Shown piece by piece: positions 2,944-61,392 of a DNA stretch of 64,000 nucleotides (position 1 is its first letter; the number at the start of each line of letters is the position of its first letter). Location: the NCBI GenBank assembly GCA_964477745.1, contig CAYZEI010000001.1:393-64392 (forward strand), written 5' to 3'. The stretch is from an uncultured Candidatus Saccharibacteria bacterium. Its GTDB lineage: Bacteria; Patescibacteriota; Doudnabacteria; UBA920. The notes under the pieces were generated by a model that was not told the DNA's origin, did not search any database, and worked only from the letters and a program-made list of their open reading frames with translations. The translations under genes were made by a program, and so were the position numbers.

Positions 2944-3831
2944 CAAACTTTGCTGTTTGCTTTCAGGATGAAAAGACAGCTCGTCATCTTCCACCACAAT
3001 AAATTTTTCCGTATTAATCTGCGGTAACTGCCAATTTTTCAACACTCTGTCCAGCCATAAGCCAAACCGGTTGGCTAATAATTTTTCCAAAAAATCCTGC
3101 GCTCTACTGGCCTTCTCAATGTCGGGATGGCTTAATTTAATATTGGGGAAAAATGCCTTTAGCCATGGTTCATTGATTTTTTGAAACTGCCATAAACTGT
3201 GGGGGTAATTTAGCGGCCGCAATTTTAAATACTCGGCCGAGGTATAAAGATTTTTTAAACTGGTGATTTCTTTTGGCCCCATAACATAGTGGTTTAAACA
3301 GAACCTGTCGGTAATATGTCCGCCATAACGTCTTTTGCCCAATACTTGAAAATAGGCGGTAATAATGGTGCGTCCGAGCCACATATAATCCGGGCGCACA
3401 ATTATAAACAAATCAATGTCGGAAGATTCTTTTTGTTGTCCCATAGCCTGACTGCCGGCCAAGCCCACTCCGCGAACGAAAGGCAAATGCTTTAAGCCCG
3501 GTGTGTAACGTTTAATTAATTTTTCCCGTTTTAAACCATAATAATAATTTCGCAATCTTAAATTGACAATTTCTTTTCGAGAAGGTAAATAATAAAATCC
3601 CAAATAATTCTCCACTTGGCCTTGGCACTCATTATCAATGCAAAATAAAATTTCATCTACGCCGACTTGAAGATTCGGTAGATGATTTTCGACTAACTCC
3701 CCTTGCGGATCTGTATATTGCTTTAACTCCGCCCAATCGGCAACTAAAAATTTATGCAACTCCAAAAGCGTCAAGGGATAATCTTGCAGATCAAAAAATT
3801 TCAGAGTTGATAAAATCCGATTTTTTAACAT
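2881..3831 (-). CDS. Nucleotidyltransferase-domain protein (Pol-beta-like NTase fold), function unknown
   Basis: GVGLAGSQAMGQQKESSDIDLFIIV fits the hG[GS]-x(9-13)-Dh[DE]h NTase signature. It overlaps the MTase gene convergently by 63 bp. Confidence 0.5.
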   Translation of the reverse strand: MLKNRILSTLKFFDLQDYPLTLLELHKFLVADWAELKQYTDPQGELVENHLPNLQVGVDEILFCIDNECQGQVENYLGFYYLPSRKEIVNLRLRNYYYGLKREKLIKRYTPGLKHLPFVRGVGLAGSQAMGQQKESSDIDLFIIVRPDYMWLGRTIITAYFQVLGKRRYGGHITDRFCLNHYVMGPKEITSLKNLYTSAEYLKLRPLNYPHSLWQFQKINEPWLKAFFPNIKLSHPDIEKASRAQDFLEKLLANRFGLWLDRVLKNWQLPQINTEKFIVVEDDELSFHPESKQQSLLAEFAKFQKQQERVSIKLVV

Positions 3832-3900
3832 CTTATAGGTCTTATAGGTCTTATAGGTCTTATAGGTCTTATAGGTCTTATAGGTCTTATGTCGCCTATA
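3832..3900. repeat. Tandem 9-bp repeat (CTTATAGGT x6 perfect plus one variant) ending in a short inverted repeat, directly abutting the start codon of the NTase gene
   Basis: Read directly: 3832-3885 holds six perfect CTTATAGGT units. Then CTTATGTCG, then CCTATAAG, which is the reverse complement of CTTATAGG. Plus ORF 3807..4007 is just this repeat translated as SYRSYR.... Confidence 0.85.
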
Positions 3901-4582: not shown

Positions 4583-5452
4583 TTATAATTCATAAACAAA
4601 ATTTAATCCTAATTCTTTTTGCAAGCCTTGTCCTCCTCCAATAAGCCATGTAAAATTTTTCCTTTGGCTTTTAGGCATATTTTCTAAAGCTCTAGCAAAT
4701 TCCTCCGGAGAAGGCCAGTTAATATTGGCTTGAGTGACGGGCTTACTCTGCTGTTCTGCGCTTACTTTAATTAAACCCTCCAATTTTTCATTTTTCTCTT
4801 TTGGAATTTCCCAATTTGCGTCAGCTAAAATTTTAAATATTTCTTCATCTAAACAGCCTTCTGGTTCTTGCATCAGCTTATTAATAAGTTCTTCATTGTC
4901 TAAAATATTTTTTAATATTAAAGCATAATTATAATCAACGGCCTCATAGCAATCTTCTCCAAAATCTAAACAAAGCGTATAGGGGTAACCTCCTCTGCTT
5001 TTGACATCAAGAAGTTTTCTTAAAATAAGATAGCTCCCCCCATTCTTTTTTTTAGCCACCCCATAAGAAATTTTATTTCCACTTCTATCCAAACCCTCCC
5101 TTGTACCAGCAATTCCTGAGTCCATGGGCTGTTCTCCTCGTCTAATACGTTCAATATAGCCTGTTCCACCATAAGCGTATAAACTAAAATCCTTCAAATT
5201 TTTCCAAAATGTTATTATCTTTTCGGCTTGAAATCCTCCAACTATTTCTGCTGGTTGTTTATTATTTATAAGTGCCTCTTCCCACTGGTAAGCCCTCTGG
5301 GCCAACACAGGATCTCCAGATGCCTTAAGCCTGTCTATATGCTCTTGGGGTGTAACAATTCGTCCAGCTTTAAAATCATCAGGATCTGTGGCAGGCAATC
5401 CCAGCTCATCCTCTGGAACATCATTAAACAAATTTTTAGGTTGTTCTTTCAT
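4583..5452 (-). CDS. Hypothetical protein (289 aa)
   Basis: Long ORF in protein-like codon phase on the gene-dense minus strand. No motif recognised. Confidence 0.45.
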   Translation of the reverse strand: MKEQPKNLFNDVPEDELGLPATDPDDFKAGRIVTPQEHIDRLKASGDPVLAQRAYQWEEALINNKQPAEIVGGFQAEKIITFWKNLKDFSLYAYGGTGYIERIRRGEQPMDSGIAGTREGLDRSGNKISYGVAKKKNGGSYLILRKLLDVKSRGGYPYTLCLDFGEDCYEAVDYNYALILKNILDNEELINKLMQEPEGCLDEEIFKILADANWEIPKEKNEKLEGLIKVSAEQQSKPVTQANINWPSPEEFARALENMPKSQRKNFTWLIGGGQGLQKELGLNFVYEL

Positions 5453-5467
5453 TTATTAATATTATTT

Positions 5468-6397
5468 TTACTTCTGGCATTTTGGGCAAAAACTGCCCGT
5501 TCTGCCACCTAATTTAAGGCTTTCTATTATTGTACCGCATTTTTTGCATTTCTGCCCGCCACGGCCGTAGACATAGTGGAATTTGCCCATTTGGCCCCAA
5601 GAGCCGTCGGTTCGCACAAAGTCCCCTACACTGGAGCCTTTAGCTTTTATGGCTATCTTTAAAACCACAAGTATATACTTAAATATATACTTTTTTTCTT
5701 GGGTAGATAATCGGGATACCGGCCTGTTTGGGCGAACACCGGAAAGAAACAATATTTCATCGGAATAAATATTTCCTATTCCCGCTACGAACCTGGGGTC
5801 CATTAACGCCAATTTAATACTTCTTTTCCCCGACACGTTTTGCGCGGCCGCGCAAAACGTGTCATAAGTAAATTTGCCACTTAATGGCTCCGGGCCGTAT
5901 TCGTTTAATTCCTTAACTTGACTGAGTTCATAGTCCCGCACAATTTTTAAATACCCAAATCGGCGCATGTCGTTAAAATAAAGGTGGGAACCGTCGGTAA
6001 ATTCAAAAACAACATGCGTGTGTTTGCCGGGCAGTTGTACCAGTGGCGCGTTAATTTTATTTAACAACCGATACTTGCCTAAAGTTTTTGCCCGCAATGC
6101 TTTATCTTCAAAAATAAATTGTCCGGTCATCTTAAGATGAACAAGCATAGAAAACGGTCCAGATAGATCAAATATTAATAATTTTGCTCTCCGTTTTACA
6201 CTTAAAACTTTTTGTCCCTGCAATAACTTTACAAACTTTATAACTTGAGAACTTTTTGCTTGTCGTCGGTTAGATACAACATCAGGCCCAACGGCAACCA
6301 TTTTTGGCGCGTTAACCTTAACCGATTTTAGTTTGCGGTTTTTTAGCTTGGCATTTAACTCACTAACTACGGTTTGGACTTCTGGAAGTTCGGGCAT
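5468..6397 (-). CDS. fpg: Formamidopyrimidine-DNA glycosylase (Fpg/MutM family)
   Basis: N-terminal MPELPEV (catalytic Pro2/Glu3) and a C-terminal CxxC-x16-CxxC zinc finger (CKKCG...CPKCQ). Confidence 0.85.
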   Translation of the reverse strand: MPELPEVQTVVSELNAKLKNRKLKSVKVNAPKMVAVGPDVVSNRRQAKSSQVIKFVKLLQGQKVLSVKRRAKLLIFDLSGPFSMLVHLKMTGQFIFEDKALRAKTLGKYRLLNKINAPLVQLPGKHTHVVFEFTDGSHLYFNDMRRFGYLKIVRDYELSQVKELNEYGPEPLSGKFTYDTFCAAAQNVSGKRSIKLALMDPRFVAGIGNIYSDEILFLSGVRPNRPVSRLSTQEKKYIFKYILVVLKIAIKAKGSSVGDFVRTDGSWGQMGKFHYVYGRGGQKCKKCGTIIESLKLGGRTGSFCPKCQK

Positions 6398-6502
6398 AAA
6401 GTAATTGCTCAGAATTGATCAAAATTTCAGCCACAAAATTATGACTAATTATGTTAATTTCATTATATCATCATAAGCCCCGGCCATGTTATAATACCTC
6501 TA

Positions 6503-8017
6503 ATGAAAAATTTCCAAAACTTTTTAAACTGTATTCCGCATAAATTCAAGCCCGAAGACGAGGCTTTAATTAAGCGTGCTTATGAATTGGGAATTAACGC
6601 TCATAAGGGCCAAAAGCGCAGAAGTGGCGCAGATTATTTTACCCATGCCTGGGAAGCGGCCATAATTTTGGGTAGCTTATTCCCCGACGCTCCCACCTTA
6701 GCCGCCACCCTACTTCATGATGTCCCGGAAGACACCACTGTAACCATAGACGAGCTGACAAAAAATTTCGGGCCTGAAATTTCCGGACTAATTGACGGCG
6801 TTACCCAATTGGGACGAGTGCGAATGAAAAACAGCAAAGATAAATTTTACGTGGAAAACTTACGTAAATTATTTATCGCCACCAGCCGAGATATTCGGGT
6901 AATTTTAATTAAACTTGCCGACCGTCTGCATAACATGCGGACCATAGAATTTATTCCGGCCGACAAACAAATTAAAGTGGCCACAGAAACTCTGGAAATT
7001 TATGCACCCATAGCTGCCCGTCTGGGTATTTCCAGCTGGAAAGACGAACTGGAAGATTTGTCTTTTAAAATTGTGTTCCCGAAAGAATTTGAAAAAACCA
7101 AAAATCTTTTGGATGCAGAGCTGTCCAGTCGGGAAGAAAGCAACAAAGAAACCCAAAAAAGTTTAACTCATATTTTGCGAACCGAGGGTATAAAGTTTGA
7201 GGAAGTAAACGGCCGGGTCAAACGTTTATATTCCCTATTTCGCAAACTCCAAAAATATGAAGGCGATATTACCAAAATCCATGATTTTATTGCCTTAAGA
7301 ATTATAACCAAATCCACTGCCGACTGCTATGCAGCCTTAGGAGTAATTCACAAACATTTTCAACCCGTGCCGGGACGGATTAAAGATTTTATCGCCAACC
7401 CCAAACCTAACGGCTACCAAAGCATCCACACAACAGTATTCGGCAAAAACGGCAAAACCATTGAAATACAAATTCGTACCGACTTAATGCACGAAGAAGC
7501 GGAACGTGGGGTCGCAGCTCATTGGTTTTATGCCGAGGAAGGTAAACCAGAAGCGGCCGGGAGAGCACAAGCCAGCTGGATAAAAGAATTACAAAGTTGG
7601 CAAGAAGAAACCAACAACCCGGAAGAATTTTTGGAAAGTTTAAAAATAGATTTTTTCCGTGACCGCATTTTTGTCTTTACTCCCAAAGGTGACATTAAAG
7701 ATTTACCCGGCGGGGCTTCGGTCATTGATTTTGCTTTTTCTGTGCATACTGACTTAGGCTACCATATGATGGGCGCCAAAATAAACGGTAAAATGAAGAG
7801 CATCTACGACCAGTTGGAAAACGAAGACGTGGTAGAAATTATTAAAAGTAAAAAGGAAGCTGTCATTTCCCGCGATTGGCTTAAAGCCGCCAAAACCCAC
7901 AGTGCGCGCAATAAAATTCGCCATTATCTAACCGAACACGACACGGGTATTTTAAAACGAATTAAGGAACTTAAACTTAAAGATTTCTCCCTACCCAGAT
8001 TCTTCCGAAAAAAATAA
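6503..8017 (+). CDS. relA: Bifunctional (p)ppGpp synthetase/hydrolase (RelA/SpoT homologue, short form)
   Basis: HD hydrolase motif (HxxxGxxRxSGxPY...H...DV.ED), a synthetase region (RIKDF..ANPKPNGYQSIHTTV) and a TGS-like segment. Confidence 0.85.
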   Translation: MKNFQNFLNCIPHKFKPEDEALIKRAYELGINAHKGQKRRSGADYFTHAWEAAIILGSLFPDAPTLAATLLHDVPEDTTVTIDELTKNFGPEISGLIDGVTQLGRVRMKNSKDKFYVENLRKLFIATSRDIRVILIKLADRLHNMRTIEFIPADKQIKVATETLEIYAPIAARLGISSWKDELEDLSFKIVFPKEFEKTKNLLDAELSSREESNKETQKSLTHILRTEGIKFEEVNGRVKRLYSLFRKLQKYEGDITKIHDFIALRIITKSTADCYAALGVIHKHFQPVPGRIKDFIANPKPNGYQSIHTTVFGKNGKTIEIQIRTDLMHEEAERGVAAHWFYAEEGKPEAAGRAQASWIKELQSWQEETNNPEEFLESLKIDFFRDRIFVFTPKGDIKDLPGGASVIDFAFSVHTDLGYHMMGAKINGKMKSIYDQLENEDVVEIIKSKKEAVISRDWLKAAKTHSARNKIRHYLTEHDTGILKRIKELKLKDFSLPRFFRKK

Positions 8018-8074
8018 CACCAACTTGACTCATCCTCGCTTTGCCCTATATACTCCCTCCTGAAAGGAGGGGTC

Positions 8075-8341
8075 ATGCCAAGCAATACCCCTGATATCTT
8101 TTTGAACTGCATGTGCGGGGGTTCGGGATTTTCTGAACTAAAGCTCCATAAGTTCCTTCAATACCACCTAAAAGCGGGATGGGAGTCGGGGCAAACCAGA
8201 GTAGCCCCCTACAGTGTGATGTTTTGCTTCACCTATGCCTGCAAGTCCTGCAACAAAAAGACCATTGTCCAAATTGAGGCACCAGAAGCAGTTCGCTCGG
8301 CGAACATCGCAGACCACGGCAAAATCAAACAGCCTGACTAG
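8075..8341 (+). CDS. Possible small Cys-containing protein (88 aa), uncertain
   Basis: ATG preceded by AGGAGGGG. Contains CMCGG and CKSCNKK. Followed by two terminator hairpins. Could equally be a non-coding leader/trailer. Confidence 0.25.
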   Translation: MPSNTPDIFLNCMCGGSGFSELKLHKFLQYHLKAGWESGQTRVAPYSVMFCFTYACKSCNKKTIVQIEAPEAVRSANIADHGKIKQPD

Positions 8342-8354
8342 GGTCGTTTCCGTG

Positions 8355-8436
8355 CGGCGGGTTTCCGAAAGGGACCCGCCTCTCTCTTTTTTAAATTAAC
8401 AAAATCCTCCCCGCTCTTTGTCGGGGAGGATTTTTC
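8355..8436. terminator. Two tandem Rho-independent terminator hairpins; the second is bidirectional
   Basis: GCGGGT...ACCCGC followed by CTCTCTCTTTTTT. Then AATCCTCCCC-loop-GGGGAGGATT flanked by an A-run and a T-run. Together they separate the relA side from the convergent ndk. Confidence 0.6.
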
Positions 8437-8463
8437 TATATACTATCTACTAAATACTGGCTA

Positions 8464-8958
8464 CTAGTAAGCAATGGTATGCTTGGTATAATCCGGCTTG
8501 TGATCATGCAATTCTTCCGCGGAAAACCAAACCGGAATTTCCACAGCTGCGTCTTCCAAATTTCCGGAGGCATGGATTAAATTATATACACCAATTTTTT
8601 TACTGTCTGCGTGATTAAAGGAAACGTGAGCGTAGTCACCTCGAATGGTGCCGGGGGCTGCGCTTTTTGGCTCAGTCGTCCCTACCATCTTGCGCACAAT
8701 TTCCACTGCTTCCACCCCTTCTAAAACAATCGCCACAATCGGACCGGAAGTTATCATCTCAATCATTAAATCGCGCACATGCTGACCGCGACGAACAGCC
8801 AAATCTTCGGTGTAATGCTTAGACGCGTGTTCTTTTTTTGGCCAAACTAATTTTAAACCGGCAATTTTCAAGCCCGCTCGTTCAAACCGAGAAATAATTT
8901 CACCAATCAAACCTCGGTTGATTGCGTCAGGTTTTAATAAGACAAGTGATCTTTCCAT
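8464..8958 (-). CDS. ndk: Nucleoside diphosphate kinase
   Basis: MERSLVLLKPDAINRGLIGEIISRFE... and the NIIHGSD-like region (NLIHASGN). Typical Ndk length plus a short C-terminal extension. Confidence 0.9.
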   Translation of the reverse strand: MERSLVLLKPDAINRGLIGEIISRFERAGLKIAGLKLVWPKKEHASKHYTEDLAVRRGQHVRDLMIEMITSGPIVAIVLEGVEAVEIVRKMVGTTEPKSAAPGTIRGDYAHVSFNHADSKKIGVYNLIHASGNLEDAAVEIPVWFSAEELHDHKPDYTKHTIAY

Positions 8959-9053
8959 AAAAGCGATCCTAATCCCCGAATAGCATCCGAATTATCCGAA
9001 TGGGCCCAATTCGGGTCATTCGTGTTTAATTCGTTGTATTCGGATCGGGTTAA

Positions 9054-9839
9054 TTATTTAATAATCTTCACTGTTTCCATAACCACCGGAGTCTTTGGTG
9101 CACCGTCGGTCGGCCCCATTTGGGGAGTAATATCAACTTTTCCGATTTTATCAACCGCATCCAAACCGGCGATAACTTTACCGAAGATTGTATATGCTGG
9201 AGGCAATTGCACGTCATCAAGCATTATAAAAAATTGGCTGGTGTTGGTGTTCGGTCCGCGGTTTGCCATGGCCAGGACACCTTTTTTATATCCGTTTTTA
9301 TACAACGCGGAGGTTGCGTTAACTTCATCGGCAAATTCCCCGCCAAAAGCAGACTGGCCACCACTTCCGGTACCGGTTGGGTCACCACCTTGAATGACAA
9401 AGCCCTTAGCAACGCGATGAAAAGTTAAACAGTCATAGTACCCGGCATTGGTTAACCTCAGGAAATTCTCCACGGTCTTGGGAGCGTCTTTGTCATAAAA
9501 TTCCACGGTAATTTTTCCAAAACCTTTTACATTCATTTCTACTTGCCTATTGGCAATACCGACTTTGTCGTTTTGTAATTTTGTTGTGTCAAACATTCTT
9601 TTGCATCCATTTAATATTTCAGGCTTTACTGCTTCGGCCACCGGAGGGGTTCCGGAAGCGGTTGGCGTTGTGGTGTTTTGTGGCACCGGACTTGGGGCAA
9701 TTGGCGATTGGGTGTCAGATTCGTCTTGCAATGATACATCATTTAATGGCCGATAATTCTGCCAATAGTAGTACCCTGCCACTCCGGTGCCTATTACCAC
9801 AATTCCCGCAATAATAACCACTAACATTTTATTTGTCAT
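9054..9839 (-). CDS. Cyclophilin-type peptidyl-prolyl cis-trans isomerase with N-terminal membrane anchor and Pro/Thr-rich linker
   Basis: FHRV..GFVIQGGDP.GTG.GG and MANRGPNTNTSQFFI match cyclophilin motifs. N-terminal TM MLVVIIAGIVVIGTGVAGYYYW. Confidence 0.85.
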   Translation of the reverse strand: MTNKMLVVIIAGIVVIGTGVAGYYYWQNYRPLNDVSLQDESDTQSPIAPSPVPQNTTTPTASGTPPVAEAVKPEILNGCKRMFDTTKLQNDKVGIANRQVEMNVKGFGKITVEFYDKDAPKTVENFLRLTNAGYYDCLTFHRVAKGFVIQGGDPTGTGSGGQSAFGGEFADEVNATSALYKNGYKKGVLAMANRGPNTNTSQFFIMLDDVQLPPAYTIFGKVIAGLDAVDKIGKVDITPQMGPTDGAPKTPVVMETVKIIK

Positions 9840-14478: not shown

Positions 14479-17154
14479 TTATCCACATTTTGAGTAGCCA
14501 CAAGACTCGCATTTCTGACAACCTTCGGCAAACACCAACATATTAGCACAAGAAGGACAAACCGGGGCGTTGCCAAGGTTGGCAATGGAAACTTTTTGCG
14601 TTTTTTTGTAAGTTAATGTGCCGTTAGTTTTTATTTTTTCTTCGGACACGGTTTCTACAATTTTTTCTTCCATTTTAATATCGGTCTCTGTTGTCATTTG
14701 CGCATCGGCTTTGGCTCCCATCCCAGGAAAATCCAAAGTCATTTGTTTGTCCGCACGCTTAATGTGTTTATCTAAAACTTTAGCCACGGCATCCGGCAAA
14801 CTAAATATTACTCCACCGTCCGAGAAAGACACATCAGGCCCACGAATGCCTTTAATCTGCGCAATAATTTCTTCAATAGCCACATTGGAACGCAAAGCCA
14901 AAGAAATTAAACGAGTAATGGCTTCAGTTTGAGCACTGAAGAATCCGCCGGCCTTACCCATTTGGGCAAACACTTCAAACGGCCCTTGGCTGTCTTCATT
15001 TACCGTAACATACAAATTGCCGTAAGCAGTGGTCATTTTGTAGGTAATCCCCTGCATTACATCGGGACGAGTACGCGGAGCAATTTTAATTTGCACTTTA
15101 TCACCTGACACGGACATAACCTCTTTAGGCTGAGATGATTCCTGCAAAGCCACAATTCCGGCGGCCGCATCTTGCTTGGCCTGAACCTGGTCGGAAGCGT
15201 CCTTGCCCAATTTTTTATGATCTGTGGCTAAAATTTGTTCGTCTCTGCTACCGTCACGATAAATGGTTCCACCTTTGCAACCAAGATCATACATTAAAGT
15301 ATAAAGCTCCTTGGTCTGTTCAACTGTATAGTTTTGGGGCGCGTTGCAGGTTTTAGAAATTGCGGAATCAGTCCAGCGCTGCACCGCGGCCTGTACCTTT
15401 ACGTGTTCTTCCGGAGCCAAAGACATGGCAGTGGCAAAATAATCCGGCAAATCTTGACCCGGGTGTTTGTCCAGCCAGTCCTGAGCCAATTTGATTTTTT
15501 CTTCGTGCACTCCAAGACGGGATTTTCTGAAATATGTCCAAGAGAAAAACGGTTCAATCCCGGTGGAAGTTCCCACCATAGTTCCGACAGTTCCGGTTGG
15601 TGCCTGAGTCATAATCGTGACATTGCGAATACCGTATTTGGAAACCAAATCCCGAATATAGTTCGGCATTTTTTTCATAAACCCGCTTTGTAAAAACTTT
15701 TCCGCGTCAAATTTTTCAAACGCGCCTTTTTCTCTGGCCAATTCAATCGAAGTTTCGTACGCAGTTACGGCAATAAATTGATACAGTTTGTCGATAAAAT
15801 CCACAGCCTCGGCACTGCCGTATTTTATTCCTTTGTAAATCATCATCTCGGCTAAACCAATAGTGCCCATACCGACACGGCGCTCGGACATTTGCTGATT
15901 TTTATTTTCATCAAAGAAATATGGCGTGGCATCTATAACATTGTCTTGAAACCGCACGGCATACTGCACGGTAGATTTAAGTTCGTTCCACATTATTTCC
16001 CCGGTATCTTTGTTTATGTGCTTGGACAAATTCACATGACCCAAATTACATACGCCCCAGGCCGGCAGTGGTTGTTCACCACACGGGTTGGTACAAGGCA
16101 AATCCGCATAGTACCAAGAGTTGGAATAATAGTTGGCGCGGTCAATAAAATACATTCCCGGTTCCGCACTGCTCCAAGCCGAAGAAATAATGTTGTCCCA
16201 AATATCCTGGGCGCGCACGGTTTTGTGCTTAATAACTTTTCCGCCAAGTTCGCGCCACTTGTTCATGTTGCCGTCCCATTTCTCGGCATAAAGCGGATCG
16301 GATGTATCCGGGAACACCAAGTCCCACGGCTTGTCTTGTTTGACCGCTTCCATAAAGTCGTCGGTGATGCCTACGGAAATGTTGGCGTTGGTAATTTTGC
16401 CGGCTTCTTTTTTGGAATTTATAAAATCTATTACGTCCGGATGCCAGACATTTAAAATTAACATTAACGCGCCACGCCTGGAACCGCCTTGCTCAATTAG
16501 GCCTGTGACAAAACTATAGAGTGATGCCCAAGACACACTACCACTGGACCTGCCGTTTACCCCTTTAACATACGCGTAGCGCGGACGCAAAGAAGACACA
16601 TTAATTCCCACCCCGCCGCCGCGAGACATAATCTCCGCCATTTGGCCGAGGGTGTTAAAAATTCCATGACGACTGTCTTTGGGTGAAGGCACCACGTAGC
16701 AATTATAAAAAGTTAAATTCTGGCCGGTGCCCGCGCCGGTAAAAATTCTGCCGGCCGGTACATACTTCCAATCGTCCATCAGTTTTCTGAACTTGCCTTC
16801 CCATTCGGTTTTCTTTTCCGCGGTTTTTTCCACGCTGGCAATATGTTTGGCAATCCGGTCAAACATATCTTCCGGGACTAACTCAAGAGGCTTGTCCACG
16901 TGCTCAATGGTGCGGTATTCAATTTCTCCGCCACGCATGCGCACGCTGACTTCGCGAGTTTCGCGATTCACATTCTCTATGGTGCCGATTTCGCGTTGGC
17001 CGGTTTTTGGGTTAACCAAAACCACCACGGTGTCCCCCACCGTTAAAGTTTCGCGCTTTACGTCTTTAACCGCGTAACGGTCTAAGAAGATTTTTTCGCC
17101 GAGCTCAGATAGCCCGTTTACTGCCCTGGTTTGTAAGTTGACTTTGGATTGCAT
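14479..17154 (-). CDS. nrdJ: Class II (adenosylcobalamin-dependent) ribonucleotide reductase
   Basis: NPCGEQPLPAWGVCNLGHVNL active-site motif and an 891-aa RNR-like layout. C-terminal Cys4 zinc ribbon CPSC...CQKCESCG. Confidence 0.9.
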   Translation of the reverse strand: MQSKVNLQTRAVNGLSELGEKIFLDRYAVKDVKRETLTVGDTVVVLVNPKTGQREIGTIENVNRETREVSVRMRGGEIEYRTIEHVDKPLELVPEDMFDRIAKHIASVEKTAEKKTEWEGKFRKLMDDWKYVPAGRIFTGAGTGQNLTFYNCYVVPSPKDSRHGIFNTLGQMAEIMSRGGGVGINVSSLRPRYAYVKGVNGRSSGSVSWASLYSFVTGLIEQGGSRRGALMLILNVWHPDVIDFINSKKEAGKITNANISVGITDDFMEAVKQDKPWDLVFPDTSDPLYAEKWDGNMNKWRELGGKVIKHKTVRAQDIWDNIISSAWSSAEPGMYFIDRANYYSNSWYYADLPCTNPCGEQPLPAWGVCNLGHVNLSKHINKDTGEIMWNELKSTVQYAVRFQDNVIDATPYFFDENKNQQMSERRVGMGTIGLAEMMIYKGIKYGSAEAVDFIDKLYQFIAVTAYETSIELAREKGAFEKFDAEKFLQSGFMKKMPNYIRDLVSKYGIRNVTIMTQAPTGTVGTMVGTSTGIEPFFSWTYFRKSRLGVHEEKIKLAQDWLDKHPGQDLPDYFATAMSLAPEEHVKVQAAVQRWTDSAISKTCNAPQNYTVEQTKELYTLMYDLGCKGGTIYRDGSRDEQILATDHKKLGKDASDQVQAKQDAAAGIVALQESSQPKEVMSVSGDKVQIKIAPRTRPDVMQGITYKMTTAYGNLYVTVNEDSQGPFEVFAQMGKAGGFFSAQTEAITRLISLALRSNVAIEEIIAQIKGIRGPDVSFSDGGVIFSLPDAVAKVLDKHIKRADKQMTLDFPGMGAKADAQMTTETDIKMEEKIVETVSEEKIKTNGTLTYKKTQKVSIANLGNAPVCPSCANMLVFAEGCQKCESCGYSKCG

Positions 17155-34007: not shown

Positions 34008-34097
34008 AGTTTGTCAGGTTATAAAGTTTGTAAAGCTCATCAAGCAATTTTACTTTTTACACTTGATGAACTTGATAACATTATAAATTTTAGCTTC
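34008..34097. repeat. Family-2 intergenic inverted-repeat element (TTATAAAGTT ... CTTGATGAACTTGATAAC)
   Basis: Fills the stop-to-start gap exactly. Copies at 34832..34929 and 36235..36332 share GTTATCAAGTTATAAAGTT / AACTTGATAAC arms. Confidence 0.75.
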
Positions 34098-34337
34098 CTA
34101 TCTTCTGCCAAAACGCTTGGGGGCGACAGGTTTGCCCATTTTTTTCAATTCTTCTTTTTGGGCTTTAATTTGACTGCGTCTGCGAGCCGCAACTTTCTGT
34201 AAATTTCTGGACTTCGGAGGTTCAAAAAATCTGGTTCTGCGGGCACGAATAAGAACACCGCTTTGTTGAATTTTGCGGTTAAAACGTCTCAGTAAGCTAT
34301 CAAACGATTCATTATCTTTTTTCTTCACTTCTACCAA
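34098..34337 (-). CDS. rpsU: 30S ribosomal protein S21; start is probably TTG at 34337, with a GGAGAG RBS, rather than the upstream ATG of the track ORF
   Basis: VEVKKKDNESFDSLLRRFNRKIQQSGVLIRARRTRFFEPPKSRNLQ matches S21. AAAGGAGAG-N7-TTG lies upstream. The N-terminal 30 aa of the track ORF are not S21-like. Confidence 0.75.
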   Translation of the reverse strand: MVEVKKKDNESFDSLLRRFNRKIQQSGVLIRARRTRFFEPPKSRNLQKVAARRRSQIKAQKEELKKMGKPVAPKRFGRR

Positions 34338-34495
34338 AGTACTCACTCTCCTTTCAAATTTAGATGGCCTTATTATAACAAAGTCCGACAAATTAAGCAA
34401 CCGGATAAAAAAAGAATTATGAATCAAGAATCACGAATTAAGTCTTTGCGACTTAAATTCCTAAATCTTAAATCATAATTCCTAAATCTTACGGG

Positions 34496-34831
34496 CTATT
34501 CCCCCATTTGCTTACCGCCCATCAGATGCAAATGTAAGTGCGGGATTACTTGGCCACCGTCTCTGCCGACATTGAATATTAACTTATAACCGGTTTCGCC
34601 CACACCATACTTAATTCCCATTTCTTTAGCCACAAAAATCATTTCCCCTACCACCGGCTCATCTTCGGCTTCCACATGGGTAATGCTCAAAATATGTTTT
34701 TTTGGAATAACCAACAAATGCACCGGGGCTTTAGGTAGAATGTCTTTAATTACCACCAACCGCTCGTTTTCAAACAAAATTTGAGCGTCAATGGTTTTAT
34801 TGATGATGTTACAAAATACGCAATCGTCCAT
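34496..34831 (-). CDS. HIT-family (histidine triad) hydrolase
   Basis: C-terminal HLHLHLMGG histidine triad. Confidence 0.8.
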   Translation of the reverse strand: MDDCVFCNIINKTIDAQILFENERLVVIKDILPKAPVHLLVIPKKHILSITHVEAEDEPVVGEMIFVAKEMGIKYGVGETGYKLIFNVGRDGGQVIPHLHLHLMGGKQMGE

Positions 34832-34929
34832 GGGAATAAGTTATAAGGTTTATAAAGTCTATCAAGTTATAAAGTTATTGCCTCCACTTGATGGACTTGA
34901 TAACTTTATAAACTTTTTACTTGCTTGGA
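34832..34929. repeat. Family-2 intergenic inverted-repeat element
   Basis: AAGTTATAAGGTTTATAAAGTCTATCAAGTTATAAAGTT ... CACTTGATGGACTTGATAACTTTATAAAC. Confidence 0.75.
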
Positions 34930-36234
34930 CTAGCGGCCAAGCCGTTTCTTCACTTCTTGTACTATCTTATCATAAGAAATGATTTCTTGCATCCCGGATT
35001 TTACATCCCGCAAAATTACCATCTCATCCATAGCTTCTTTCTGTCCCATAATCAGCGCAATTGGTGCATGGAAAGCCTCGGCGGCTTTTAGCTGGTTCTT
35101 TACTCCCATATTCCCGAAATGGTCGTAAACGGAAATTTTCTCCGTGGTTAAATCCCGGAATAACCGTAAGGAACGTTTGGCCGCCAACTCCCCCAGGGGC
35201 ACTAAAAAGACATCATTTTTCTGTTCTCTGGCAGCGGCTACCTTGTTAGCCTCTAAAATTTTTCGCAAAACCGACAAACTCCCGCTAAAACCAAAGCAAC
35301 AATGACTTTTACCGCACAAATTTTGCATTAACGATTCATGATAGCCACCCTCACCCAACACCACATTCTCCCCTTTTACTTTATATTTAATAACTAAGTT
35401 GGTCTTACTGCTACCGGTCGGTCCGGCATAAAGCGGATTTAACTGATAAGGAATTCCAAGTTCGTCCAAAGCTTCTAGAATATTGGTAAAGTGCTTGCGG
35501 GACTCTTCGGAAAGAAAATCCAACACCGCAGGAGCCTCTGACAACAGCCCTTGGCAATCTAAATTACTGCAACGAAAAACATTTAAAATTCTACCCTGCA
35601 AATGTTCGTTGCAATCATCGCAAAGCTGATATTTTTTACTGGACAAAAAGTCCTGCAGAGTACGGCTATAAGCCTCCTGGCAGTCATCTTGGCCGATATG
35701 ATTAATTTCCAATACACAATCTTCTAAACCTAAACCTTTAAGCAATTCCCAGACCCCACCGATTACTTGAGCCTCTGTTAAATGGTTAAAACTTCCGAAG
35801 ACTTCAAAACCAAATACATAATCGGAAATCGCTTTGCCTTCTAAATCTTGTTTAACAGTATAACCGCTATACTGCCATTTACTGAATGGGGAGGTTTCGT
35901 AAACTTTATGTTGATAATAGGCGCGCAACACCCCCGGTAAAAAATCCCCGCGTAAAATCACTGGTCGGCCGGCGACATCCATTTGGAAAAAAGTTTTTAA
36001 AGCACCGGGATGATTTTTGTAAAAATACTCGTAAAGTCGCAAATCTTCCAAAAGCGGAACCTCTATTCGTTCAAAACCGTAAGTGCGAGACAATTTCGCC
36101 AATCGGCGCAAAAGCAAAGACCACAATCCGTCGGCCTCTGTTGATATATCTTCAAAATCCGGCAACGCCTGAATTTTCTTTGGCACATAGCCGGCAGAAG
36201 CCTGCTCTTTGGAATTTTTTTTTGGACGACCCAT
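34930..36234 (-). CDS. hisS: Histidyl-tRNA synthetase-like class II aaRS (HisS; HisZ-like paralogue not excluded) with a Cys-rich insertion
   Basis: Class II catalytic core pattern (FERIEVPLLEDLRLYE...) and a C-terminal anticodon-binding-like domain (VFLVPLGELAAKRSLRLFRDL). Insertion CDDCNEHLQGRILNVFRCSNLDCQG. Confidence 0.65.
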   Translation of the reverse strand: MGRPKKNSKEQASAGYVPKKIQALPDFEDISTEADGLWSLLLRRLAKLSRTYGFERIEVPLLEDLRLYEYFYKNHPGALKTFFQMDVAGRPVILRGDFLPGVLRAYYQHKVYETSPFSKWQYSGYTVKQDLEGKAISDYVFGFEVFGSFNHLTEAQVIGGVWELLKGLGLEDCVLEINHIGQDDCQEAYSRTLQDFLSSKKYQLCDDCNEHLQGRILNVFRCSNLDCQGLLSEAPAVLDFLSEESRKHFTNILEALDELGIPYQLNPLYAGPTGSSKTNLVIKYKVKGENVVLGEGGYHESLMQNLCGKSHCCFGFSGSLSVLRKILEANKVAAAREQKNDVFLVPLGELAAKRSLRLFRDLTTEKISVYDHFGNMGVKNQLKAAEAFHAPIALIMGQKEAMDEMVILRDVKSGMQEIISYDKIVQEVKKRLGR

Positions 36235-36332
36235 AATATAAATAAGTTATCAAGTTATAAAGTTTTGCAAGTTATAAAGTTTCCGGTTCAACTTGATGAA
36301 CTTGATAACTTTAAAAACTTTCTACTTTTGTA
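36235..36332. repeat. Family-2 intergenic inverted-repeat element
   Basis: AAGTTATCAAGTTATAAAGTTTTGCAAGTTATAAAGTT ... TTCAACTTGATGAACTTGATAACTTTAAAAACTTT. Confidence 0.75.
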
Positions 36333-51846: not shown

Positions 51847-51911
51847 ATTTAGCTTATAGCTGTTAGCTTATAGCTGTTAGGCCTAAAACCTAGAAGCTAG
51901 TAGCTAAAAGC

Positions 51912-56742: not shown

Positions 56743-57243
56743 TTATCTAACGCCTCTAGGAGTCACTTTATGCATGCCTTCAGGAAAATTTCCGGTCTGC
56801 TTTCCAAGACAGAAATAATACGAATAGTCCGAATAGAGGGTATTCCCATTAATAACATAGGATATTCCGCTCGGATAGTAATAGTAAGTATTCCCAAGTA
56901 TTCCTGCAGGAGCTCCGGAATCAAAAGAGTCGTAACTGACAGTGGCACAAGTACCATCCGCAGGCAGTGGAGAAGAAGGCAAAGTCGCTGCAAAAGTTGG
57001 ACTAACCCCGCCAGGAATTCCTAAAGTCGGCGAAGATGGATATCCTTTATTATAGGAATAGTAAAGCTCCAACGCCGTATTCATTTGGGTCATATCGCCC
57101 AAACGTTTGGCGTCTCTGGCTTTTTGTCTGGCAGACAAAAAAGCAATCAAAGCAACAGAAGATAATAGAGCAATAATTGCAACCACAACCAAAAGCTCTA
57201 TTAAAGTAAAGCCGGAATTATTTTGTTGATTTTTATTTTTCAT
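56743..57243 (-). CDS. Type IV pilin / pseudopilin (class III signal peptide)
   Basis: Prepilin motif NSG/FTLIELLVVVAIIALL (G-F-T-L-I-E) with a hydrophobic N-terminal helix. Confidence 0.8.
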   Translation of the reverse strand: MKNKNQQNNSGFTLIELLVVVAIIALLSSVALIAFLSARQKARDAKRLGDMTQMNTALELYYSYNKGYPSSPTLGIPGGVSPTFAATLPSSPLPADGTCATVSYDSFDSGAPAGILGNTYYYYPSGISYVINGNTLYSDYSYYFCLGKQTGNFPEGMHKVTPRGVR

Positions 57244-57430
57244 GACTTTTTATACATTTATTATACAACTACTTGATTTAAAAAACAATGTGGATAAACT
57301 TAGGGGAAATTGGAAGCCCTTGATAAAATCTGTTAAATATTGTAGAATATCAAAGAATCCTTATAAGTTACATAGTCTTTGCTTCCTAAATCTTCCGGAT
57401 AGTAAAGGATTACATATAGGATACGATTGT

Positions 57431-57506
57431 GGGTCTGTAGCTCAGTTGGTAGAGCAGCGGCCTTTTAAGCCGTTTGTCGAGGGTTCGATCCCCTCCGGAC
57501 CCACCA
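57431..57506 (+). tRNA. tRNA-Lys (anticodon TTT), CCA encoded
   Basis: GGGTCTGTAGCTCAGTTGGTAGAGCAGCGGCCTTTTAAGCCGTTTGTCGAGGGTTCGATCCCCTCCGGACCCACCA folds as a cloverleaf with anticodon loop CUUUUAA. A terminator hairpin + T-run follows. Confidence 0.9.
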
Positions 57507-57658
57507 TAAAGAAAATGCCTCATCCTGCCTTGCGCGGATGGGGCAGTTTCTTTTATAGATGACAGCGGGGCTCGAACCCACCACGAAAAAGCACCGAATT
57601 ACTTGGGTGCTTTTTTTTAAAAGTGATATAATTAAGTCAATTAACTTTAATCAATTAT

Positions 57659-58429
57659 ATGAGCATGCATGAAATTGAGGGTCTTGTAGAAAGTTCCATA
57701 AGATTACTAGATAAATCACCCGAGGGCTCATCGTTAGATCTTCGTTCTGTATTTTGGAACTTATTTAGATACCAAGAAAAGTTTGATACAGGCGGTACTC
57801 TATTTCGGGCAATAGATATTTTAATCAAAAATCATTACGTATATGTTTTCCCTGTCACAGAACATCCTAATTATGAAAAATATAAAAGCTATTTTGACAG
57901 CCTTAAAGAACACTCATATATTCTTAGAAACCCTATAGAAGAATGGGATCGCGAAAACAATCCAGAGACTGGTTGTGAATTTTGTGATATTAAAGAAGAA
58001 TGGGGTGAAAAGTTTGCTCAAGAAAGAGGAACAACCGGCCCAAGCCTTTATATCCAAGCAGGCCTTGAATGTTGGCAAAAATTGGTAGAGCAAGGAAAGT
58101 TCACGGGCAAAGATGCGGAACCGCCCAAAAAAATGGAAATGATAGATTTGGCAACAGAAATAATTAATATTGCACTAAAAAATAACGACACAGGATTAGC
58201 TGCCTGGTGGTATAAAGTCGGTTTGCCTTATGAAATAACCTGGTCAGATTATGAGTTTGCAAGTTTGTCAAAAGATACCAGGTTGCTCGGTCTTAGAAAA
58301 ATCGCCGAGGAAAACAAGCTAATGGAAGTTGATGTATATGGTTACGACGAGGATAGTGTAGCTGATATAGATGATGGTCCAAATGAAGAAACTAATAAAT
58401 TTCTTAGATGGTGGTTTTTCTTAAGTTAA
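57659..58429 (+). CDS. Hypothetical protein (256 aa), cargo between direct repeats AACCCACCACGAAAAA
   Basis: ORF bracketed by identical 16-bp repeats at 57575..57590 and 58445..58460. No family recognised. Confidence 0.5.
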   Translation: MSMHEIEGLVESSIRLLDKSPEGSSLDLRSVFWNLFRYQEKFDTGGTLFRAIDILIKNHYVYVFPVTEHPNYEKYKSYFDSLKEHSYILRNPIEEWDRENNPETGCEFCDIKEEWGEKFAQERGTTGPSLYIQAGLECWQKLVEQGKFTGKDAEPPKKMEMIDLATEIINIALKNNDTGLAAWWYKVGLPYEITWSDYEFASLSKDTRLLGLRKIAEENKLMEVDVYGYDEDSVADIDDGPNEETNKFLRWWFFLS

Positions 58430-58483
58430 AACTGATTCTGGGAAACCCACCACGAAAAAACATTAAGTCCTAAATTATTATTT

Positions 58484-58978
58484 ATGACAAAATCAGGGAG
58501 AACTCTAAAGGTAGATTCTATATTAGAAACATTGTTCATTGATATTGAAAAGGGCAATAACGATAAAGTTATAGAGGTATTGAAAGAAAAAGGAGTAGAT
58601 GCTTTTGATAATTACAAAAGAACGGTCTTGATTAACAGCGCCTTCTACGGGAACATTTCCTTATTAAAGTGGTGCATACAAAATGGAGCAGACGTCAATT
58701 TTCAAGATCGCGGTGGATGGTCAGCATTACAATTTTCAGCGCAAGAAGGAAGGTTCGATGTTGCTGATATTCTAATTCAAAATAAGGCCAATACCAATCT
58801 TAAAGACGAAAATGGTAATAGCCCAATTATGACCGCCTTAACCAATTGGAAAGGCGGGAAAAATTTAGACATTATAAAATTGCTTGCAAAAAATGGCGCA
58901 GATATTCATCAAAAGAACAATTACGGCGTTTGTGCTAATGAGATGCTAACAGAAGACTTAAGAAAACAACTACAGTAA
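58484..58978 (+). CDS. Ankyrin-repeat protein (164 aa, about 3-4 ANK repeats)
   Basis: Repeats of the G-TPL..A...G....V..LL..GAD.N type (TVLINSAFYGNISLLKWCIQNGADVNFQD; GWSALQFSAQEGRFDVADILIQNKANTNLKD; NGNSPIMTAL...KLLAKNGADIHQKN). Confidence 0.75.
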   Translation: MTKSGRTLKVDSILETLFIDIEKGNNDKVIEVLKEKGVDAFDNYKRTVLINSAFYGNISLLKWCIQNGADVNFQDRGGWSALQFSAQEGRFDVADILIQNKANTNLKDENGNSPIMTALTNWKGGKNLDIIKLLAKNGADIHQKNNYGVCANEMLTEDLRKQLQ

Positions 58979-59052
58979 ACTTTAAATGTTCGCCTTTCAG
59001 ATAAATATTTCACGCTCAATCATTGGTGGTTTAGCCACATGAGTTAATAGCG

Positions 59053-59093
59053 CCCCCGGACCCACCATAAAACCTCCAAATATTTGGAGGTTT
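59053..59093. repeat. Direct repeat of the tRNA-Lys 3' end (CCGGACCCACCATAAA) followed by a terminator hairpin; candidate attR of an integrated islet
   Basis: 59056..59071 is identical to tRNA positions 57495..57510. Then CCTCCAAA-TA-TTTGGAGG + TTTTAT. Confidence 0.65.
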
Positions 59094-59165
59094 TATAATT
59101 TCAAGCCCCCTCTTTACAAAAAACTAAAAAAGGGCGACACTAAGGGTATTATTAACCATAACTTT

Positions 59166-59546
59166 ATGGATAAAAAAACAAAGCAAATTATCGCTTGGGT
59201 TGGTGCTATTATAATTGTTATAGCTATTGTTTGGGTCATTCGCGTAAAACAAACCAATGACAATAAAGATAGCCAGGCCAATGAACAACAAAATACCAAC
59301 ACTTCCCAGCAAGAGCAAAAAACCATAGCCCCGGCGAAAACCAATTCCGATGTGTGGGTAGGCAATCTAAAAGCCTCTGACACACCAAGCAAAGGCAACT
59401 TAATGTTAGTAACAGCCGAACGGACTATTTATATTAAAACCAATCGCGATTACAGCTCCTTGGTGGGTAAAAAAGTTCGGGTATCTTATTCCGGATCATG
59501 GCAAAATTTTGTTTTAGGGGATATTACTGTAGCCGAACAGGAATAA
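59166..59546 (+). CDS. Small membrane-anchored protein (126 aa)
   Basis: N-terminal TM IIAWVGAIIIVIAIVWVI, Q/N-rich linker, small C-terminal domain. The overlapping minus ORF looks like an antisense artefact. Confidence 0.4.
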   Translation: MDKKTKQIIAWVGAIIIVIAIVWVIRVKQTNDNKDSQANEQQNTNTSQQEQKTIAPAKTNSDVWVGNLKASDTPSKGNLMLVTAERTIYIKTNRDYSSLVGKKVRVSYSGSWQNFVLGDITVAEQE

Positions 59547-59618
59547 AAAACAAGCTTATAAGTGCTAGCTACTAGCTTATAGTTCCCAAGCTAACAGCCA
59601 TAAGCTAAAAACTAAACT

Positions 59619-60518
59619 ATGATACTAGAAACATTTAAACATTTCCCGGACTTTGAGTTATTAGATTCCGGTGAAGGGTTTCGTTTGGAACGCTGGGGCA
59701 AAGTAATTTTGCAACGTCCCGACCCACAAATTATTTGGCCAAGGTCTCTGCCTCCCGAAGAATGGCAAAAGGCCTGGGCAATTTTTCAGTCCCCTTCCGG
59801 CGGAGACAAAGGCCGATGGGAATTTAACCAAGCCATTCCAAAACTTTGGACATTAACTTTTAATGAAGTTAAGTTTTTACTAAAACTTTCCCCTTTTAAG
59901 CACACCGGGATTTTTGCCGAACAGTCAGCCAACTGGGAGTGGATGCTAGATAGATTACAGATTAAAGATGCTGGATTAAAGTCAGTTGCAAATAACATAA
60001 ATCCTAAATCTAAAATCCTAAATCTATTTGCCTACACCGGTGGGGCGACTGTTGTTTTAGCCAAAGCCGGAGCATTAGTTACACACGTAGATGCATCCAA
60101 ACCTGCCATTACCTGGGCAAATGAGAACTTTAAATTAAACAACCTACCAAAAGATTCCGTGCGTTGGATTTTGGATGATGCAGTAAAATTTGTAAATCGG
60201 GAAGTAAAACGAGGTTCGCTTTACGACGGCATAATTATGGATCCGCCCGCCTTTGGACATTCCCCGACAGGTAAAACCTGGAAATTTAACGACGATTTGC
60301 CCGGACTCTTGGAATCCTGCGTAAAACTTCTTTCACCAAATGCAAAGTTTTTACTCATCAATGGTTACGCCACCAACTCTTCGTCCCTGGCTTTAAATAA
60401 CTTACTGGAAGATGCGGGGAAAAATTTGGGTGGTAAAATTGAATGTGGAGAGTTATGTTTGAAACAAAAATCCGGCCGAATGATTTCTACCGGAATATTC
60501 GCCAGGTGGAGCAAATGA
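59619..60518 (+). CDS. SAM-dependent RNA methyltransferase, RlmI/RlmK-like C-terminal MTase domain
   Basis: LNLFAYTGGATVVLAKAGA.VTHVDASK (motif I) and IIMDPPAFG (motif IV DPPxF), typical of the YccW/RlmI family. Confidence 0.65.
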   Translation: MILETFKHFPDFELLDSGEGFRLERWGKVILQRPDPQIIWPRSLPPEEWQKAWAIFQSPSGGDKGRWEFNQAIPKLWTLTFNEVKFLLKLSPFKHTGIFAEQSANWEWMLDRLQIKDAGLKSVANNINPKSKILNLFAYTGGATVVLAKAGALVTHVDASKPAITWANENFKLNNLPKDSVRWILDDAVKFVNREVKRGSLYDGIIMDPPAFGHSPTGKTWKFNDDLPGLLESCVKLLSPNAKFLLINGYATNSSSLALNNLLEDAGKNLGGKIECGELCLKQKSGRMISTGIFARWSK

Positions 60519-61026: not shown

Positions 61027-61392
61027 TTAAGCTAGTGACTGGGTCATCTTATTTAACATTTTCATGACTTCCAGTAATAAACCATCTACTTTTTCAAACT
61101 CTACAATTCCAGCATGCTTTAAGCGTTTGGCGATTTCTATTTGGGTTTCCAGCTCTGCACCAGAAGCAAAGGCAATGATCAAAAATTGTCTAAAATCTTT
61201 TCTGCTATTTCTGGTTCTTCCTTCGGCAATATTTGATGGAATAGAAACTGCACTTCTTCTTGTTTGTGAGGTTAAACCATATATTTCAGATTTTGGATAC
61301 TTGTTTGTTAACAAATAAACTTCGGTCACTAGTTCCATTGACCGCTGCCAAACCACCAGCTCCTTATACGATGTAATGATTCCGTGGGTCAT
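61027..61392 (-). CDS. Four-helix-bundle protein (TIGR02436; so-called 23S rRNA intervening-sequence protein family)
   Basis: SYKELVVWQRSMELVTEVY..T..YPKSEIYGLTSQTRRSAVSIPSNIAEGRTRNSRKDFRQFLIIAFASGAELETQ matches the family consensus closely. Confidence 0.8.
   Translation of the reverse strand: MTHGIITSYKELVVWQRSMELVTEVYLLTNKYPKSEIYGLTSQTRRSAVSIPSNIAEGRTRNSRKDFRQFLIIAFASGAELETQIEIAKRLKHAGIVEFEKVDGLLLEVMKMLNKMTQSLA

Follow-up and report, generated by a model that had tools for sequence, protein, structure and literature searches.

A short integrase-less islet at a tRNA-Lys(UUU) gene of Doudnabacteria as a probable remnant of integrative elements

Integrative elements and genomic islands that target tRNA genes are bordered on one side by the tRNA gene and on the other by a direct repeat of its 3' end; element DNA, which brings its own terminator, restores the 3' end of the tRNA gene, the contents of the site vary among relatives, and tyrosine integrases use the sublocation between the T-loop and the 3' end. 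A counterpart to this arrangement is seen at a tRNA-Lys(UUU) gene in the 64,000-nt stretch analysed here (contig CAYZEI010000001.1, positions 393 to 64,392; hereafter the window), which comes from an uncultured bacterium of the Doudnabacteria lineage. The window has an intact tRNA gene, a distal repeat of its 3' end followed by the original flank, an island that is absent from relatives, and an arm that is shared with them. Relatives of the locus have a PF00589 integrase beside the displaced tRNA fragment, on the attR side, and an identity block of 21-24 nt running from the T-loop. The islet in the window differs in that it lacks an integrase of its own, spans 1.56 kb with two genes, and has a tRNA fragment eroded to 16-19 nt. 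We propose that the segment at ~57507-59052 is probably the decayed, integrase-less remnant of at least one integrative element that a tyrosine integrase inserted into the 3' end of the tRNA-Lys(UUU) gene.

The last 16 nt of the tRNA-Lys homology, CCGGACCCACCATAAA, occur exactly twice in the window (57495-57510 and 59056-59071), as the initial annotation had reported, and allowing one mismatch lengthens the repeat to 19 nt (95%). The last 16-19 nt of the tRNA gene thus reappear 1561 bp downstream, directly before a terminator hairpin (T4) and the flank of p126, a gene for a membrane-anchored protein. That each copy is followed by its own terminator was also correctly described, and both hairpins (T1 after the first copy, T4 after the second) are borne out by their predicted folds (Table 1). 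Exact 16-mer direct repeats no more than 3 kb apart are expected 0.125 times per window (200 Markov simulations). Inside the outer pair, a second exact 16-nt pair, AACCCACCACGAAAAA, is also real, and extends to 19 nt at 95% (one mismatch); its left copy stands where it had been placed (57575-57590), and its right copy is at 58444-58459, one nucleotide away from the 58445-58460 given earlier. The string ACCCACCA was observed 6 times in the window against 1.4 expected, and 4 of these lie on the + strand inside 57499-59067, where they form a tandem series; no terminator or hairpin follows the third copy (58445). The same arrangement was found at 99.9-100% identity in four independent assemblies (L001-L004), and it is therefore not a chimera. 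The tRNA-Lys gene, which is 100% identical to the copies in the relatives L027 and L011, is the integration target and forms the attB side. Att-like sites are thus present on both sides of the islet, the attR site being eroded relative to the block in active relatives.

With the downstream methyltransferase gene as anchor, scans of species-representative genomes and metagenome contigs gave 37 related loci, of which the named ones are mostly Candidatus Doudnabacteria (Patescibacteria). Their kept gene order is p508, p473, a pilin-like protein, tRNA-Lys, a variable segment, p126, the methyltransferase, a response regulator and p181. The gap between tRNA-Lys and p126 is empty in L013 and L015, and contains a GIY-YIG nuclease gene in L016, L018 and L038, followed in L016 by a 14-nt repeat of the tRNA 3' part. 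In the closest relative, L027 (methyltransferase 87% identical), the gap is occupied by a lipoprotein gene with no detectable relation to p126 and then by CCCCTCCGGACCCACCA, which repeats 17 nt of the tRNA 3' end, while L011 has a riboflavin operon of four genes there, with a 73-nt inverted repeat on its flanks. Neither cargo gene of the window was found by tblastn at any of the 37 loci. Judged from these gene contents, the tRNA-Lys site is a true integration hotspot, as had been proposed together with the assignment of the outer pair as attL and attR; empty sites, other cargoes with repeats of their own and integrase-bearing elements with a homologous arm all agree with it.

The integrase-bearing relatives also give a model for the right border. 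In L017 the order is a PF00589 tyrosine integrase (E 2.8e-30), a 90-aa open reading frame (ORF), ~150 nt of non-coding arm, the tRNA-Lys 3' fragment GTCCGATCCCCGCCGGACCCACCA, a terminator and p126, with no intact tRNA within 9.3 kb upstream. The same layout is seen in L057, which has an integrase 87% identical to that of L017 and three successive tRNA-3' fragments. Two further loci, L037 and L038, are 100% identical from GTTCGATCCCCTCCCATCCCACCA onward over more than 240 nt, the identical stretch starting GTTCGATCC..., and unrelated upstream; the tRNA is intact in L038, while L037 shows the arm together with a 90-aa ORF homologue. Since they are identical downstream and unrelated upstream, they represent filled and empty alleles with the junction in the T-loop. 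Window 58995-59067, which contains the right arm, aligns with the arms of L017 and L037 (between the integrase or 90-aa ORF and the tRNA fragment) and with L027 2690-2750. Furthermore, window 59004-59073 is 78% identical to the arm and fragment of L039 (50-126), where the methyltransferases are only 69% identical as proteins. Because of this shared arm, we regard the right border as the right end of the same family of integrase elements. Aligned with the 21-24 nt fragments of the relatives, the displaced fragment in the window is shortened by small deletions. L011 has a T4-like hairpin right behind tRNA-Lys, and such hairpins precede p126 in L011 and L029; T4 is thus probably the original terminator of tRNA-Lys. 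T1 is identical in L027 and missing from L011, whose tRNA-Lys abuts the T4-like hairpin. The region upstream of p126 is 91% identical between the window and L027.

Table 1. Features of the tRNA-Lys locus, with positions in the window
Feature	Position	Strand	Remarks
tRNA-Lys(UUU), anticodon ttt, intact, encoded CCA	57431-57506	+	ARAGORN; Rfam tRNA model 74 bits, full length
Outer direct repeat copy 1, attL core CCTCCGGACCCACCATAAA	57492-57510	+	
T1 terminator hairpin, now serves tRNA-Lys; inserted DNA begins here	57507-57556	+	-25.2 kcal/mol, z -5.6; flagged by terminator scan
X remnant, inverted tRNA T-arm-like GGGGCTCGAACCC, holds second ACCCACCA copy	57556-57585	+	
Inner direct repeat copy 1 AACCCACCACGAAAAAGCA	57575-57593	+	also in L027 at ~1975-1992
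T2, bidirectional terminator-like hairpin (A-run, stem, T-run)	57586-57618	.	fold about -19.7 kcal/mol; identical in L027
Promoter and 5' leader of 256-aa gene	57619-57658	+	extended -10 TGATATAAT at 57624-57632
256-aa cargo gene, uncharacterised family	57659-58429	+	
TGGTGGTTT-N27-ACCCACCA copy 1	58409-58452	+	TGGTGG = codons for C-terminal Trp-Trp, invariant in 256-aa family
Inner direct repeat copy 2 AACCCACCACGAAAAAACA	58444-58462	+	in 54-nt spacer separating the two cargo genes
Ankyrin gene upstream sequence			ACATTAAGTCC...
164-aa ankyrin-repeat cargo gene (ANK164)	58484-58978	+	Ank_2 E 2.9e-21
Right arm, element right end (P arm) remnant	58995-59052	+	sequence homology to relatives' arms
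TGGTGGTTT-N27-ACCCACCA copy 2	59024-59067	+	
Outer direct repeat copy 2, attR: displaced and shortened tRNA-Lys 3' fragment CCCCCGGACCCACCATAAA	59053-59071	+	
T4, 30-nt perfect palindrome and terminator	59067-59096	.	-16.6 kcal/mol, z -5.5
Ancestral downstream flank: p126 upstream region and p126 membrane-anchored protein gene	59097-59546	+	syntenic in 23 related loci

Taken in sequence, the events at the locus would be as follows. Integration would have rebuilt the tRNA 3' end from element DNA, bringing the new terminator T1, and would have pushed the original 3' end and T4 rightward; the empty site would read ...CCGGACCCACCATAAAACCTCCAAAT. A later deletion would then have removed the integrase and most of the element, and erosion would have cut the displaced fragment from 21-24 nt down to 16-19 nt. 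The islet today comprises a left module made up of T1, X, T2 and an extended -10 promoter of the p126 type, the unit of two genes, and ~60 nt of remnant arm. Since the islet is integrase-less and its tRNA fragment is shortened, it would be an old scar. The inner pair probably goes back to a secondary recombination or an exchange of cargo at a ACCCACCA-containing site, which may have taken place when the present cargo was acquired; this is the least certain step.

Several observations weigh against this account. No integrase, excisionase or other mobility gene was seen in the island or in the 64-kb window: the ORF list contains no recombinase between the outer repeats, and tblastn gave no integrase homologue at E<=10, the only queries of this non-exhaustive search being two related Doudnabacteria integrases. 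The earlier statement that the integrase has been lost agrees with this result. An empty-site allele of the window's own species was not found either; the near-identical contigs L001-L010, screened for such alleles, all break off either within the tRNA or at the 30-nt palindrome, as metagenome assemblies commonly do, and are uninformative on this point. The origin of the T1-X-T2 module as part of an element is uncertain, as no attL was recovered from an integrase-bearing relative. The part of it with T2 and the promoter is similar to the usual stretch between tRNA-Lys and p126 in distant relatives, which makes the island a mosaic. Finally, the left inner repeat is older than the present cargo, because it is shared with L027, which has other cargo.

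This last point leads to the strongest rival, in which the cargo was swapped by homologous or homology-facilitated recombination within an old frame shared with L027, with no integrase in that step. The frame would consist of the tRNA and T1-X-T2 on the left and of the arm and p126 on the right, and the 256-aa and ankyrin genes would have come later by DNA uptake. In its favour, the module T1-X-T2 (57507-57615, 110 nt) is 95.5% identical in L027, where it stands before the lipoprotein gene; the arm and attR are also alignable, and the cargo enclosed by this common frame is unrelated. Nucleotide homology to the nearest cargo homologues ends at the ORF boundaries. The rival is further favoured by the promoter of the 256-aa gene: window 57603-57674 is 75.6% identical (blastn, E 1.8e-7) to the promoter and leader of p126 in L040 (632-709), and a motif of TGCTATAATTAAGG..AATTAAC with an extended -10 (TGnTATAAT) lies upstream of p126 in L015, L017, L018 and L040. 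The homology to the p126 promoter of L040 runs from T2 to the start codon; the island thus reuses a p126-type promoter and is a mosaic in this respect. However, a swap leaves the exact inner repeat of 16-19 nt unexplained. In addition, T1-X-T2 is far more conserved than its surroundings (73% for the spacer between the pilin gene and the tRNA and 79-86% for the neighbouring genes, in the same comparison of window and L027), which fits a recent spread of element ends equally well. We regard this exchange as possible but rather unlikely as a replacement for integration.

The initial annotation had favoured successive insertions, of which integration at the tRNA stands and the nesting is not established. 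In its nested form, an ankyrin element would have entered at the tRNA and an element of ~869 bp with T2, the promoter and the 256-aa gene would then have entered a secondary site, AACCCACCACGAAAAA. An exact 16-nt repeat (19 nt with one mismatch) does bracket T2, the promoter and the 256-aa gene; ACCCACCA, itself in excess, is common to all four sites, and tandem arrays of tRNA fragments exist in L057. Against this, the left inner copy and T2 are contiguous in L027 before the lipoprotein gene, and L027 has no second AACCCACCACGAAAAA. T2 is therefore to be assigned to the left copy, not to the 256-aa gene, and since the left copy lies in a module shared with L027, the inner pair is not the simple footprint of an insertion of that gene. 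The left copy moreover lies within a remnant, X, that is also found in diverged form in L011 (4956-5015), and the only arm-like sequence before the right copy is TGGTGGTTT, which is coding. Nested insertion is thus a doubtful account.

As for X itself, it has an 81% reverse-complement match over 21 nt to the tRNA T-arm (57473-57493). Copies in the opposite orientation lie before T4-like hairpins in L011 (9024-9075) and L029 (~1830-1875); these have a hairpin with a TTTT loop, a GGTTCGA motif and an ...ACCA end, and look like a decayed tRNA-Lys. A minus-strand pseudo-tRNA at 57556-57615 was considered on the strength of the T-arm match and the likeness to L011 and L029, but could not be confirmed; Rfam gave no tRNA match there. 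Over 57000-59700, at E<=10, Rfam returned neither a second tRNA nor a known RNA family; the matches to Phe_leader and to small-RNA families were rejected because they are driven by the terminator hairpins.

Two further readings are very improbable. An ancestral arrangement lost in relatives, with repeats that arose by chance or slippage, draws on the missing same-species empty allele, but both genes are missing from all 37 related loci, other lineages have different cargo with tRNA-3' repeats of their own, filled and empty alleles exist, and repeats of this length are rarely expected. Integron-like cassettes, each closed by an attC-like imperfect hairpin, would account for the string TGGTGGTTT-N27-ACCCACCA, not mentioned in the initial annotation, which occurs twice (0 expected) with equal spacing, once after each cargo gene, and whose TGGTGG is able to pair with CCACCA; however, the hairpin is no more stable than shuffled sequence (z -1.5 at the third ACCCACCA copy), its left arm there is conserved coding sequence for Trp-Trp-Phe-Phe, the homologous arm of L027 reads TTGGAAGATT and is unable to pair, the spacing in L039 is 31 nt, and no IntI-type integrase was seen. 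The TGGTGG codons of the first copy are also present in a 66%-identical homologue in L023, which is without ACCCACCA, and the flanks and 27-nt middles of the two copies are unrelated. The attC reading was accordingly dropped, and the identical spacing is a coincidence without explanation. An insertion sequence or miniature inverted-repeat element with a target-site duplication was also rejected, as neither repeat pair has inverted repeats at its inner edges and 16-19 nt exceeds typical duplications.

With integration into tRNA-Lys as the preferred reading, we now turn to the two cargo genes, whose ORFs are as initially described. They form a unit, with no terminator between them and T4 after them. 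Their GC content is slightly low at 0.354-0.366 compared with 0.416 for the window, and lies within a neighbour range that includes the response regulator at 0.367. The 256-aa gene had been called an orphan, which it is not: a profile search found 347 cluster representatives of its family at E<=1e-3. The protein has no match in Pfam, NCBIfam, PHROGs or PADLOC, and its AlphaFold2 model (pLDDT 88.5, pTM 0.86) gave no significant fold match among solved structures (PDB). Longer members of the family have C-terminal ankyrin repeats with a PDZ domain (P0039), TPR repeats or DKNYY domains. The ankyrin protein gave only generic ankyrin matches in Pfam, NCBIfam, PHROGs and PADLOC. Two homologues of it, at 79% and 62% identity in L052 and L055, are each found downstream of a tRNA-Ser gene with partial tRNA copies near it, at distances of 2.4 kb and 0.9 kb. 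A 60% homologue sits after a gene for a small TPR protein, and a 44% homologue, P0013 (L058), directly follows a gene for a 1407-aa toxin with eCIS_core and GH-E domains and precedes a SUFU-like gene.

The ankyrin protein had been suggested to be a host-interaction effector, which is speculation: no signal peptide is visible in its sequence, and its scores with the NCBIfam T4SS_Ank models, 20-40 bits where the cut-offs are 450-1400, fall short of an effector family match. An immunity role is at least as plausible, because the 44% homologue has a toxin-immunity layout and such an association is known from the literature. Imm-ank and Imm-SuFu have been described as partners of Tox-GH-E, and toxin-less polyimmunity loci as well as immunity domains fused to ANK or TPR repeats have been reported (Zhang et al. 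2012, PMC3482391). Like those toxin-less loci, the islet has small co-directional genes with protein-binding modules and without a toxin gene, and the ANK and TPR fusions of immunity domains there resemble the ANK and TPR fusions in the 256-aa family here. It differs in that neither cargo protein matches any Pfam Imm family model. The ankyrin fusion in the 256-aa family mirrors the gene adjacency in the window, which hints that the two products may act together. The best lead is that they would be joint protein-binding factors, possibly orphan immunity proteins against polymorphic toxins, and not secreted effectors. Two points weigh against this lead. Neither gene has its nearest homologues next to members of the other's family, which speaks against a joint role, and the immunity idea is drawn from the gene context of one 44%-identical homologue and from the analogy of domain fusions; the ankyrin gene of the window has no adjoining toxin gene. 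The uncharacterised 256-aa family, with its confident model and its ankyrin, TPR and DKNYY fusions, may belong to toxin-immunity biology.

A number of other observations concern the relatives. The riboflavin operon of L011, an 83%-related genome, spans 5067-8519 and comprises ribD, ribBA, ribH and ribE with a probable FMN riboswitch region. Its inverted repeat (73 nt, 89%; 4925-4997 and 9024-9096) consists of a terminator hairpin and the X remnant, and a perfect 221-nt tandem duplication (9169-9610) lies just upstream of p126; in L028, an independent assembly, the spacing of the p126 upstream region and p126 is consistent with this duplication. The tRNA-Lys gene is on the strand opposite the methyltransferase in seven relatives (L012, L014, L019, L021, L035, L036 and L042), and tRNA-Lys(ttt) is present as two tandem genes in L014. 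These arrangements suggest that inversion and duplication also occur at the tRNA-Lys site, possibly by way of inverted T-arm copies. The elements of L017 (1-9300), L056 and L057 contain a histidine kinase/response regulator pair, an ArsR-like regulator and a permease, to which L056 adds a heavy-metal P-type ATPase, so that the integrase-bearing elements look like carriers of metal-resistance cargo. Viral contigs scanned with the arm, T1 and the L017 integrase gave no match. After the displaced tRNA fragment, L027 (2766-2960) and L057 (4766-4900) have a structured module, 'm', that starts CTTCTTCGCCAAGGCTACGAAGTGCA and has a distal inverted partner CGAAGAAGTG; it may be a small repeat element and is absent from the window. 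L027 also has an insertion of a 510-aa ORF, which separates the methyltransferase gene from that of the response regulator.

Elsewhere in the window, a gene for a 23S rRNA intervening-sequence protein or bAvd-like four-helix bundle (PF05635, E 2.9e-36) lies at 61027-61392 on the minus strand, between the genes for the response regulator and p181. Almost all relatives have these two genes side by side, so it is a second small insertion nearby. Exact direct repeats of 17-19 nt at 34061-36310 bracket a 434-aa ORF (34930-36234), with ACTTGATGAACTTGATAAC at 34061 and 36291 and TATCAAGTTATAAAGTT at 34860 and 36248. A 9-nt tandem array, TCTTATAGG, in 5-6 copies, and related short intergenic repeats of the TTAGCTTATAGC type occur at 3831-3890, 51849-51880 and 59550-59612. 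The string CGGTTCAATCCCGGTGGAAGTTCCCACCA, which is like a tRNA 3' end, lies on the + strand at 15550-15578 within an 891-aa minus-strand ORF and is probably due to chance.

The filled and empty alleles and the integrase-bearing relatives document the tRNA-Lys gene as a recurrent site of integration and gene exchange in Candidatus Doudnabacteria, a group whose mobile elements are poorly described; full-text literature searches gave no description of tRNA-linked islands in Patescibacteria. Besides complete tRNA-targeted elements, another close comparison is with the CIME-type remnants next to integrative elements known from the Streptococcus ICESt literature, where tandem accretion places small segments side by side. 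As there, several direct att-like sites separate small integrase-less segments, and in L057 three tRNA fragments lie beside a complete integrase. The window differs in that no integrase partner is known in its genome, mobilisation in trans being hypothetical, and in that the internal sites depart from the tRNA core on the right side (CGAAAAA compared with TAAA). A more far-reaching and improbable idea is that the conserved frame (the 110-nt left module and the right arm of ~100 nt) constitutes a family of integrase-less cassettes, mobilised in trans by an integrase of the L017 type and swapping ready-to-express cargo among Doudnabacteria, with the two genes of the window as an orphan-immunity module. 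If true, defence genes acquired horizontally would find at this site an expression dock with a promoter already in place, in an episymbiont lineage with reduced genomes. The mechanism proposed here is nonetheless the standard one of a tRNA-linked islet scar, and the islet in the window adds one more case of a known kind of feature, from a lineage that has been little studied.

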